IMG/VR virus record: IMGVR_UViG_3300023213_000324 | Location: 1 to 57,841 of that record | Length of the DNA stretch: 57,841 nucleotides | Origin: a virus | Taxonomy: Duplodnaviria > Caudoviricetes | Strand: one strand, 5' to 3' | Part shown: one piece after another, positions 2,412 to 2,901 of the stretch | Layout: each line of letters opens with the position of its first letter | Numbering within the stretch: position 1 is the stretch's first letter | Program-made: the position numbers and the translations under genes | The notes under the pieces: model-generated | The model's input: the letters and a program-made list of their open reading frames with translations, nothing else | What the model was told of the DNA's origin: nothing | The model's database searches: none

Positions 2412-2901
2412 GATGGTTACGTTGATCGTGAGAGATTCGAAAGAAGAGATTGTAACGAATGTAAAGGAGTGGAGTTGTTAAAGAAGATTGTTTCGCGTCG
2501 GACGAATGAATCGTAGCGGATGAAATCCTGTAACGAATATGAAGAGTGAGTCGTGGTACCTGATAATTTCGTTTCTGTGGAATGATTCGATGGTCTCGCT
2601 TGTAACATGTCAAGAGAAAGAATTTGTCAATTTCGTTTGTTTCGTTAGCAGTGAAAGATTTGTAAGATGCGGAATCTTGTATCGATAAATTGTGAATGAT
2701 TCGTCTTTATCCGATTTGTTTCGGGAAGTGGGAAAGAAACGAAGGGTACGACTTTGTATCGATATATCAGATTGAAATCGTCGACGCCGGATAGTATCGA
2801 TGGACGGGAACGAAACGGGATATTGGATTTGTTTCGCAGGACTTGGATTGAATCGTTTTAGTAGATTTGTTTCGCAGTGTGTGAATGAATCGTTGGTCAA
2901 G
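2412..2901 (+). ncRNA. TIGR-like dual-repeat guide array 1 (~13 units)
   Basis: Alternating (A)TTTGTWTCG / 9-nt spacer / AAWGAWTCG / 9-nt spacer, period ~36-38 nt, e.g. gtttcg-cgtcggacg-aatgaatcg-tagcggatg and gtttcg-cagtgtgtg-aatgaatcg-ttggtcaag. Confidence 0.85.

Follow-up and report, generated by a model that had tools for sequence, protein, structure and literature searches.

A 13-unit dual-repeat array on a phage record, probably a remote TIGR array of the phage's single TIGR-TasA system

The array locus

The stretch of DNA analysed here (the window) is the whole of the IMG/VR virus record IMGVR_UViG_3300023213_000324 of 57,841 bases, which is linear and has no end repeats. Near its left end, in the gap between the gene for a 243-amino-acid (aa) phage protein and a gene of the GerE/LuxR helix-turn-helix (HTH) type, lies a run of short alternating repeats and spacers, called array 1 below. 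It is probably a genuine dual-repeat TIGR array of the single TIGR-TasA system of this phage, the effector gene of which, tasA, is located near the other end of the record. TIGR-Tas systems were first described in 2025 (Faure et al., Science, PMC12045711). The locus contains the following features.

1660-2391, + strand: upstream gene, an open reading frame (ORF) for a 243-aa phage protein; its stop codon lies inside TGTATAAT
2385-2392, + strand: TGTATAAT, lying over the conserved Ser-Val-stop with which the upstream gene ends
2385-2395, + strand: promoter-like TGTATAATAAG, a perfect -10 hexamer with TG before it, 18 nucleotides (nt) ahead of array 1
2413-2901, + strand: array 1, 13 dual-repeat TIGR units (edge, spacer A, loop, spacer B) of 36-40 nt each, with 8 variable nt per spacer
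2903-3361, + strand: GerE/LuxR-type HTH gene of 152 aa (PF00196, E 5.6e-17)

Anatomy of array 1

The 26 repeats of array 1 (13 edge and 13 loop repeats, alternating) were recovered both by coordinate reading and by dynamic chaining of repeat anchors. An earlier, sequence-only reading of this DNA had described 13 consecutive edge/spacer A/loop/spacer B units from position 2412 onward. All 13 are present, albeit with a start at 2413, and the five spacer pairs quoted in that reading are those of units 3, 4, 6, 9, and 13. The core of the edge repeats is TTGT[T/A][T/A]CG and that of the loop repeats AA[T/A]GA[A/T]TCG. Of the 26 repeats of array 1, 22 have CG at their end and 3 have TG; over all four arrays that were eventually found in the record, the corresponding numbers are 37 and 10 of 50, and both repeat types begin with G(A). 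Covariation of the ends of edge and loop repeats is described as a feature of TIGR arrays in the text of Faure et al., where it is ascribed to a symmetric dimer that reads both (PMC12045711).

The spacers had been taken to be 9 nt long. Position 9 is a G in 46 of the 50 spacers of the four arrays (24 of 26 in array 1), while positions 1-8 vary. The repeats are therefore held to begin with G: The G at position 9 is more likely the first base of the repeat that follows, so that each spacer has 8 variable nt and each guide 16. The same variable length of 16 nt per guide has been given for SpTIGR, the system of a Salicola phage; TIGR spacers are, in the published descriptions consulted, typically 9 nt long and 8 to 12 nt in some systems.

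The successive edge-to-edge distances in array 1 are 36, 38, 40, 36, 36, 37, 40, 39, 38, 38, 37, and 38 nt. Because of this variation between 36 and 40 nt, methods that depend on periodicity miss the array: It was detected neither by Tandem Repeats Finder nor by autocorrelation at lag 36. The arrays adjoining the tas gene are equally irregular in unit length, so the irregularity characterizes the system as a whole and is not peculiar to the remote array.

Array 1 has the alternating repeats of 8-12 nt, the short paired spacers, and the common repeat starts and ends that characterize dual-repeat TIGR arrays. [quoted passage not shown] Its RNA has no predicted stable fold (z = +1.29). No Rfam family was matched by array 1 and no CRISPR repeat family reached the threshold; a CRISPR array was ruled out on this ground and on account of the two kinds of repeats, of approximately 10 nt, and the spacers of 8 nt.

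Periodic DNA may also encode a repetitive protein, on either strand. On the - strand, two ORFs, one of 63 and the other of 99 aa, overlap this stretch, and several 36-nt periodic stretches of other phages turned out to be coding repeats. The + strand, however, has no ORF of 60 aa or more spanning 2392-2884, the two - strand ORFs have no Pfam match, and the variation of the units between 36 and 40 nt disrupts any reading frame. As, moreover, the homologous gap in a related phage (G001, see below) differs in both length and content, a protein-coding origin of the repeats is extremely unlikely.

The repeat grammar is shared with arrays beside tasA

A matrix made from array 1 was run over the whole record at a score of at least 12, which gave 23 unit matches on the + strand and one on the - strand, 13 of them within array 1. 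Markov-1 shuffles gave a mean of 4.5 matches on both strands together. The matches elsewhere cluster at 36928-36993, 49402-49503, and 52326-52390. A genome-wide scan of this kind had been suggested in the sequence-only reading; it recovered array 1 on the + strand and, in addition, an array at 36.9 kb that was absent from the listing of that reading. The effector gene and the three other arrays are as follows.

36928-37056, + strand: array 3, 3 units and a partial fourth, with a GT2 glycosyltransferase gene (36142-36915) on one side and a 239-aa gene (37066-37785) on the other
49383-49567, + strand: array 2, 4 full units and a partial unit at each end
51327-52265, + strand: tasA, encoding a 312-aa Nop-domain protein without a nuclease domain
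52270-52397, + strand: array 4, a partial unit followed by 3 units, from the tasA stop codon as far as the point where a GT9-like gene (52398-53255) starts

A test that avoids circularity used matrices trained solely on the 49.4-kb and 52.3-kb arrays, with 100 shuffles and windows of 510 nt. These matrices gave 8 matches within array 1 and 3 at 36.9 kb, while the maximum in the shuffles was 3 per 510-nt window. Array 1 thus shares the repeat grammar of the arrays linked to the effector gene, as had been claimed from the letters for the array next to the TasA-like gene.

All four arrays are on the + strand, and each extends through an intergenic gap as far as the start codon that follows. Array 3 lies 14 kb upstream of tasA. 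Array 2, in which Tandem Repeats Finder does detect a 36-nt period, reaches the ribosome-binding site of a 370-aa gene without known function (49588-50700). With 13 full units against 4, 3, and 3, array 1 is indeed the largest array in the record, as had been said of it, and 13 of the 23 full units of the record lie in it. The description of array 1 as an orphan holds in part: There is no tas homologue within 48.4 kb of it on the contig, but it is one of four dispersed arrays (at 2.4, 36.9, 49.4, and 52.3 kb) and does not stand by itself.

Spacer A of unit 6 of array 1 (2608-2616) is identical over 9 nt to a spacer A of array 2 (49448-49456). An identical pair arose in 10 of 2000 random spacer sets. 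The surroundings (2577-2664 and 49417-49503) are 74 % identical across 88 nt. The common spacer in similar surroundings suggests either that units have been copied between arrays or that the two arrays have a half-target in common. It also ties the remote array to a tas-proximal one, as does the 11-mer TGTATAATAAG ahead of both (see below).

The effector

In sequence searches of the PDB, the best match of the 312-aa protein was 9mty, a TasR-tigRNA-DNA complex (phmmer E 5.7e-12). A profile of 30 sequences matched TasR at 3.7e-19, TasH at 4.8e-7, and the IS621 recombinase at 1e-3. The protein also matches a PHROG annotated as 'transposase' (E 5e-45), while in Pfam it matched no family and, in particular, no nuclease family. 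The AlphaFold model is helical from residue 13 (pLDDT, the predicted local distance difference test score, 89.2; pTM, the predicted template modelling score, 0.86). When it was compared to the PDB with Foldseek, the nine best matches were all TasH or TasR complexes (E 4e-8 to 3e-6), followed by recombinases of the IS110 family. The alignment to TasR begins at TasR residue 124-125, and the N-terminal HNH/RuvC nuclease domain is therefore absent. By sequence comparison and by its predicted structure, the product of 51327-52265 is a TasA, with a Nop fold and no nuclease.

The TasA family comprises 5,653 proteins at E <= 1e-5. In approximately 70 of 80 IMG/VR loci encoding homologues, an array with a period of about 36 nt lies beside the gene, as read from the lag-36 listing. 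The residues Y290 and H297 have the same spacing of 7 residues as Y289 and H296 of SpTasH, a correspondence by motif and spacing only. In the alignment of 30 sequences, H297 is shared by all 30, and position 290 holds either Y or F. In SpTasH, Y289 and H296 are reported to process the precursor (PMC13421893).

A profile search of the whole record did not find a second Tas gene. The 296-aa product of 411-1301, which is encoded near array 1, showed no likeness to Tas in hhalign (probability 0.1).

An array at the same site in a related phage

The 243-aa upstream gene has one relative in IMG/VR, with 83 % protein identity, on the contig G001 (42,379 bases, 44 % complete). A scan of one metagenome returned only the G001 phage again, at 99.9 % identity. 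The G001 homologue also ends in TCTGTATAAT and is followed, at the same site, by an array of approximately 5 units with 10-nt G...CG repeats and 8-nt spacers. The DNA of G001 and that of the record are 69 % identical across the upstream gene. The homology ends at 2393 and the two arrays do not align, which points to spacer turnover at a fixed site. After the array, G001 carries a different gene, and a LuxR-like gene follows approximately 1.2 kb further on. No Tas homologue (E <= 0.001) is encoded within 29.9 kb upstream or 12.3 kb downstream of the G001 array. It is the fixed site, the changed spacers, and the lack of a nearby tas gene in G001 that speak most strongly for maintenance of the remote array and against an artefact of the left end of the contig.

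These observations bear on the explanation of array 1 as a relic that stems from the tas-proximal arrays by decay or duplication, sits passively in a gap, and supplies no functional guides. The irregular unit lengths of 36-40 nt, the weak first units, and the missing terminator would all fit a relic, as would the lack of targets (see below). The spacer in common with array 2 and the 74 % identity over 88 nt are consistent with the copying of units. Array 1 is, however, the largest array of the record. The positions of its boxes have been kept, with G at position 9 in 24 of 26 spacers and CG at 22 of 26 repeat ends, and the arrays adjoining tas are just as irregular. An array at the same site in G001 with wholly different spacers, next to a gene that is still 69 % identical in DNA, is unlike the product of neutral decay. 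A relic is, all in all, an unlikely explanation of array 1.

Other genomes encoding TasA homologues were scanned with comparatively crude methods, which do not show the absence of arrays. In G003 (161.6 kb) and G005 (62.2 kb), both of which have terminal repeats, and in G004 (91.5 kb), units recognized by the genome's own matrix lie only beside tas, save for one isolated match above the threshold at position 47409 of G003. A k-mer cluster scan puts the array of G008 beside tas as well. Among these four comparators, a dispersed layout is unusual. Remote stretches with a period of 36 nt, four in G005 and one in G003, were inspected and rejected, as they are coding repeats and not arrays. Edge and loop repeats have common ends in these systems, too: In the G003 clade, which has the layout of the record and of G001 (10-nt repeats and 8-nt spacers), both repeat types end in CA, and in G005 both end in CCA. 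G006 (161 kb, 93 % complete) and G009 (95.6 kb, 100 % complete, with terminal repeats) each encode a TasA homologue, but neither the autocorrelation nor the k-mer scan, crude as they are, gave an array in them. The two genomes are candidates for irregular or remote arrays. A k-mer cluster of G006 that was inspected turned out to be a coding repeat of 63 nt. A repeat search near tas in the contig L012 found no array. A scan of IMG/VR for the single edge-N9-loop pattern gave 29 single matches, none of them within an array.

The ends of the contig

CheckV estimates the completeness of the record at approximately 48 %. Array 1 sits 2.4 kb from its left end, and the distance from array 1 to tasA on the contig is 48.4 kb. 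Because the record is only about half complete, the 49 kb given in the sequence-only reading and the lack of a second tas gene hold for the contig, and the whole genome may differ in both. A small gene near the right end (53797-54012) has a homologue in G001 that is located upstream of the syntenic block, and the two ends of the contig may thus be neighbours in the real genome. Measured the other way round, the distance between tas and array 1 would then be at least approximately 8 kb, by arithmetic from the coordinates. This is still beyond the 5 kb around tas that were searched by Faure et al. (PMC12045711) and at the edge of the span of up to 10 kb used by Xu et al. (10.64898/2026.09.09.750476).

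Array 1 could alternatively be served by a second effector encoded in the unsampled half of the genome, just past the left contig end, in which case it would not be an orphan at all. The incompleteness of the linear record, the 2.4 kb that separate array 1 from the left end, and the possible closeness of the contig ends, seen from the position in G001 of the homologue of 53797-54012, all fit such an arrangement. Yet, the repeats of array 1 are the same as those beside the known tasA, the 29.9 kb upstream of the array in G001 are devoid of a Tas homologue at E <= 0.001, and the 296-aa neighbour of array 1 does not resemble Tas. A separate effector for array 1 is therefore considered improbable, to much the same degree as a relic.

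Flanking sequences and expression

The 243-aa upstream protein belongs to no Pfam or PHROG family, and its look-alikes in the Atlas are viral hypothetical proteins. The octamer over its last codons, TGTATAAT, occurs four times in the record, each time on the + strand, where 1.37 copies are expected on both strands together; 5 of 100 shuffles reach four copies. The exact 11-mer TGTATAATAAG has two copies only, at 2385 and 49164. Copies with one mismatch are found at 19132 (- strand), 34973, 35973 (- strand), and 38757, which makes six sites with at most one mismatch, a number reached by none of 100 shuffles. The recurrent TGTA[T/A/C]AATAAG is a possible phage promoter element. The copy at 49164 is the end of a more complete promoter-like site, approximately 200 nt upstream of array 2.

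49144-49174, + strand: sigma-70-like promoter, TTGGAA, 16 nt, TATAAT, with 10 of 12 consensus positions; it ends in TGTATAATAAG

A promoter scan accepted no -35 element for the copy at 2385. Of the promoter-like motif with which array 1 had been credited, the presence of TGTATAAT at 2385-2392 stands and is strengthened by the occurrence of TGTATAATAAG at both array 1 and array 2. The overlap with a coding sequence and the lack of a recognized -35 element weaken it. A dedicated promoter for array 1 is plausible from these motifs. Between the promoter-like site at 49144-49174 and array 2, an ORF of approximately 35 aa (49186-49293) was seen by eye.

On the + strand, the stretch from the upstream stop codon (2391) to the beginning of the luxR-type gene was free of terminator-like sites. 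The missing terminators and the intergenic placement make co-transcription with the flanking genes plausible for all four arrays, including that of array 1 with the luxR-type gene. A start of that gene 1 nt after the last spacer had been proposed. The ATG at 2903 agrees with this. The last loop repeat contains another ATG in the same frame, at 2885, which is an alternative start and would give a protein of 158 aa. Neither candidate start is preceded by a Shine-Dalgarno motif, whereas a motif of that type was present at 42 of the 71 starts checked.

The close contact between the array and the start of the luxR-type gene, and the absence of a Shine-Dalgarno motif there, could be taken to mean that the repeats are signals acting in cis on that gene, for instance protein-binding sites or leader elements, and not guides. 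All four arrays end at a start codon, as such signals might. On the other hand, the same grammar flanks the Tas gene, a member of a family associated with arrays, and the units are direct repeats with variable inserts of 8 nt and not inverted repeats. In G001, furthermore, the array precedes a different gene, with the LuxR-like gene about 1.2 kb further on. A role as cis-acting signals is very unlikely in view of these findings.

Search for targets

Targets of the 23 units were sought in both half-site geometries, with mismatched pairs of A and B spacers serving as controls. A convincing target was not found. In G001 and approximately 1.5 megabases (Mb) of other TasA phages, there was no enrichment of targets over the controls, and none of 16 parsed units of G003 matched the record within 2 mismatches.

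A perfect match of 16 nt exists for unit 5 of array 1; it consists of the unit's spacer A (8 nt) and, after it, the reverse complement of its spacer B (8 nt). The match lies in an 87-aa Cys-rich ORF (L091, 10333-10348, corresponding to approximately 90333 in G003) and is also present in L045, L057, and L162. The clade concerned (G002, G003, and L057) consists of three related contigs of approximately 159, 162, and 85 kb, which carry TIGR-TasA and repeats that resemble those of the record. With 506 control pairs, no perfect match was obtained in the same 1.9 Mb. The arrangement, by our own derivation from the 8-nt 3' overhangs and the C-5 rule, is the one that would yield 3' overhangs as reported for TasR. 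Over the whole of IMG/VR, 23 contigs contain the 16-mer, in about 10 contexts that are unrelated to one another, and ten contigs of 108-221 kb have it in a second context that is conserved. Because of this wide occurrence, the match of unit 5 is treated as a weak lead and not as a target, and it may be due to chance.

A proposed mode of action

If array 1 is, as seems probable, a working TIGR array, it would be transcribed from the + strand like the genes on either side, with a start at the TATAAT that overlaps the upstream gene's stop codon or else as read-through of the upstream operon, and the transcript would probably extend into the luxR-type gene. Dimers of TasA, encoded at least 49 kb away on the contig, would bind the G...CG boxes common to edge and loop repeats. 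The C-terminal Tyr/His pair would then cleave the precursor within the edge repeats and release guides of approximately 36-40 nt with two 8-nt spacers each. Each guide would take the nuclease-less dimer to a site of 16 base pairs, one spacer pairing with each DNA strand, and the complex would bind and block this site without cutting. While the 49.4- and 52.3-kb arrays flank tasA, the guides of array 1 and of the 36.9-kb array would act in trans. For array 1, supply of guides in trans is plausible.

In the published work, TasA binds guides processed from its array, and it was shown to act as an RNA-guided repressor (Xu et al. 2026, bioRxiv 10.64898/2026.09.09.750476). According to the same preprint, arrays lie upstream, downstream, or on both sides of tas or within it, and guides of dual-repeat arrays are uniformly 36 nt, a length at which the Tyr/His pair can get at the cut site.

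The anatomy of array 1, the grammar common to it and the tas-adjoining arrays, the Tas fold (as a model), the single tas gene on the record, and the syntenic array in G001 were all demonstrated here. Several points weigh against a functional array in spite of this. Transcription, processing, loading, and repression are steps that we infer. Only 3 of the 12 edge-to-edge distances are 36 nt, so there is no regular 36-nt unit, and units of 36-40 nt depart from the uniform 36 nt of Xu et al. (10.64898/2026.09.09.750476). The first units are degenerate, with low anchor scores. No terminator-like site was found on the + strand after 2901 or after any of the four arrays, in contrast to what is described for typical arrays. 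The dispersed layout is not supported by the four comparators with recognizable arrays (G003, G004, G005, and G008). With the record approximately 48 % complete, a second effector is possible in the part that was not sampled. Finally, the search of the record for self-targets gave no enrichment: The best unit had 2 mismatches (38161, - strand), against 3 for the best of 138 controls per geometry.

A further, doubtful extension of the proposal is that the TIGR system of this lineage forms a dispersed regulon, in which the arrays are parts of polycistronic transcripts and TasA harvests guides in trans and, in doing so, cuts these mRNAs at the edge repeats. If this were true, the message of the luxR-type gene, which lacks a ribosome-binding site and begins a single nt downstream of the last spacer, could be nearly leaderless.

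Comparison with known systems

The closest known systems are the dual-repeat TIGR-TasA systems described by Faure et al., such as FpTIGR of Flavonifractor plautii, which have edge and loop repeats of approximately 10 nt with common start and end motifs and short paired spacers. Further likenesses with the systems in that text (PMC12045711) are a phage-borne Nop-domain Tas protein that stands on its own and has a C-terminal Tyr/His loop (here a candidate, by motif and spacing only) and the position of arrays 2 and 4 directly upstream and downstream of tas. The system of the record differs from these in that its largest array is 49 kb away from tas on the contig and another one 14 kb away. Its units are of 36-40 nt instead of uniformly 36 nt, no terminator follows the arrays, and the arrays occupy intergenic gaps and end at the start codon of the next gene. 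Box C is TCG or TTG here and not CCA.

A likeness also exists with box C/D sno/sRNAs and the bridge RNAs of IS110 elements, in which a Nop-domain dimer likewise reads box C/D-like motifs flanking two guide segments (PMC12045711). Box C/D RNAs are often encoded far from the genes of their proteins and can be clustered. Unlike box C/D and bridge RNAs, the units studied here are compact and in tandem, they have no K-turn stems, and their targets are presumed to be DNA. The distance to the IS110 system is also evident from the effector, as the profile match to IS621 has an E value of just 1e-3 and the TasA of the record has neither a DEDD nor a RuvC domain.

Orphan CRISPR arrays and phage-borne mini-arrays use effector proteins that are encoded elsewhere. 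Array 1 resembles such orphans in being a guide array apart from its effector, with action presumed in trans and repeats that match those of the effector-linked array. It differs from them in chemistry and protein family and in having split guides of 8 + 8 nt that would read both DNA strands. To our knowledge, adaptation genes are not known for TIGR.

The dispersed arrays with the largest one being remote, the irregular units, the missing terminators, and the embedding of arrays between genes set the system of the record apart from the published descriptions. Literature searches, which returned only an unrelated paper and one review, gave nothing on orphan TIGR arrays. The word 'orphan' does not occur in the texts of Faure et al. 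(PMC12045711) and Xu et al., whose supplementary tables may list such arrays, as may the TIGRSafari resource. The expression 'in trans' is absent from the text of the Xu preprint and occurs once in that of the Science paper, inside the title of a cited CRISPR paper.

In the published surveys, 6,685 arrays stand against 20,096 tas loci, and the authors ask whether array-less loci use another source of guides or have arrays that escape detection. The record suggests that guides can come from a distance and that surveys of the effector neighbourhood miss them. It offers a concrete case in which most of the guides (13 of the 23 full units) are located at a great distance from the effector, the arrays being too irregular for detection by periodicity, and it argues for searches of whole genomes that are based on motifs. 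If remote and irregular arrays were common, they could explain many of the array-less tas loci found in surveys limited to 10-kb flanks or to methods that are strict on 36 nt. With one small protein and four arrays, the phage would be a simple system in which to study loading in trans. The natural targets of TIGR-Tas, the origin of its arrays, and their expression are open questions of the field.

Other features of the record

In the record, 77 ORFs were called, 69 of which are on the + strand. The phage has no near relative in the annotated phage collection, where neither DNA nor protein gave a match, and neither TasA nor two other proteins of the record (P0002 and P0004) have a close relative among the viral contigs searched. 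The gene for the large subunit of the terminase (44825-47743) contains an intein-like insert (Intein_splicing, E 1.8e-6, which is below the Pfam cut-off).

A long run of genes for the modification of sugars or nucleotides extends from approximately 17000 to 36900 and includes a dehydratase/epimerase, a B12-binding radical SAM protein, a C-methyltransferase, a QueC-like protein, and a GT2 protein. This block may have a role in the modification of DNA or glycans. The GDP-mannose dehydratase/epimerase gene (17979-20186) is interrupted by an insert of approximately 390 aa. Repeats are also present in the gene for a 337-aa protein at 7996-9009, where the stretches 8058-8357 and 8903-8983 have periods of 42 and 33 nt, respectively; these are presumably coding repeats.

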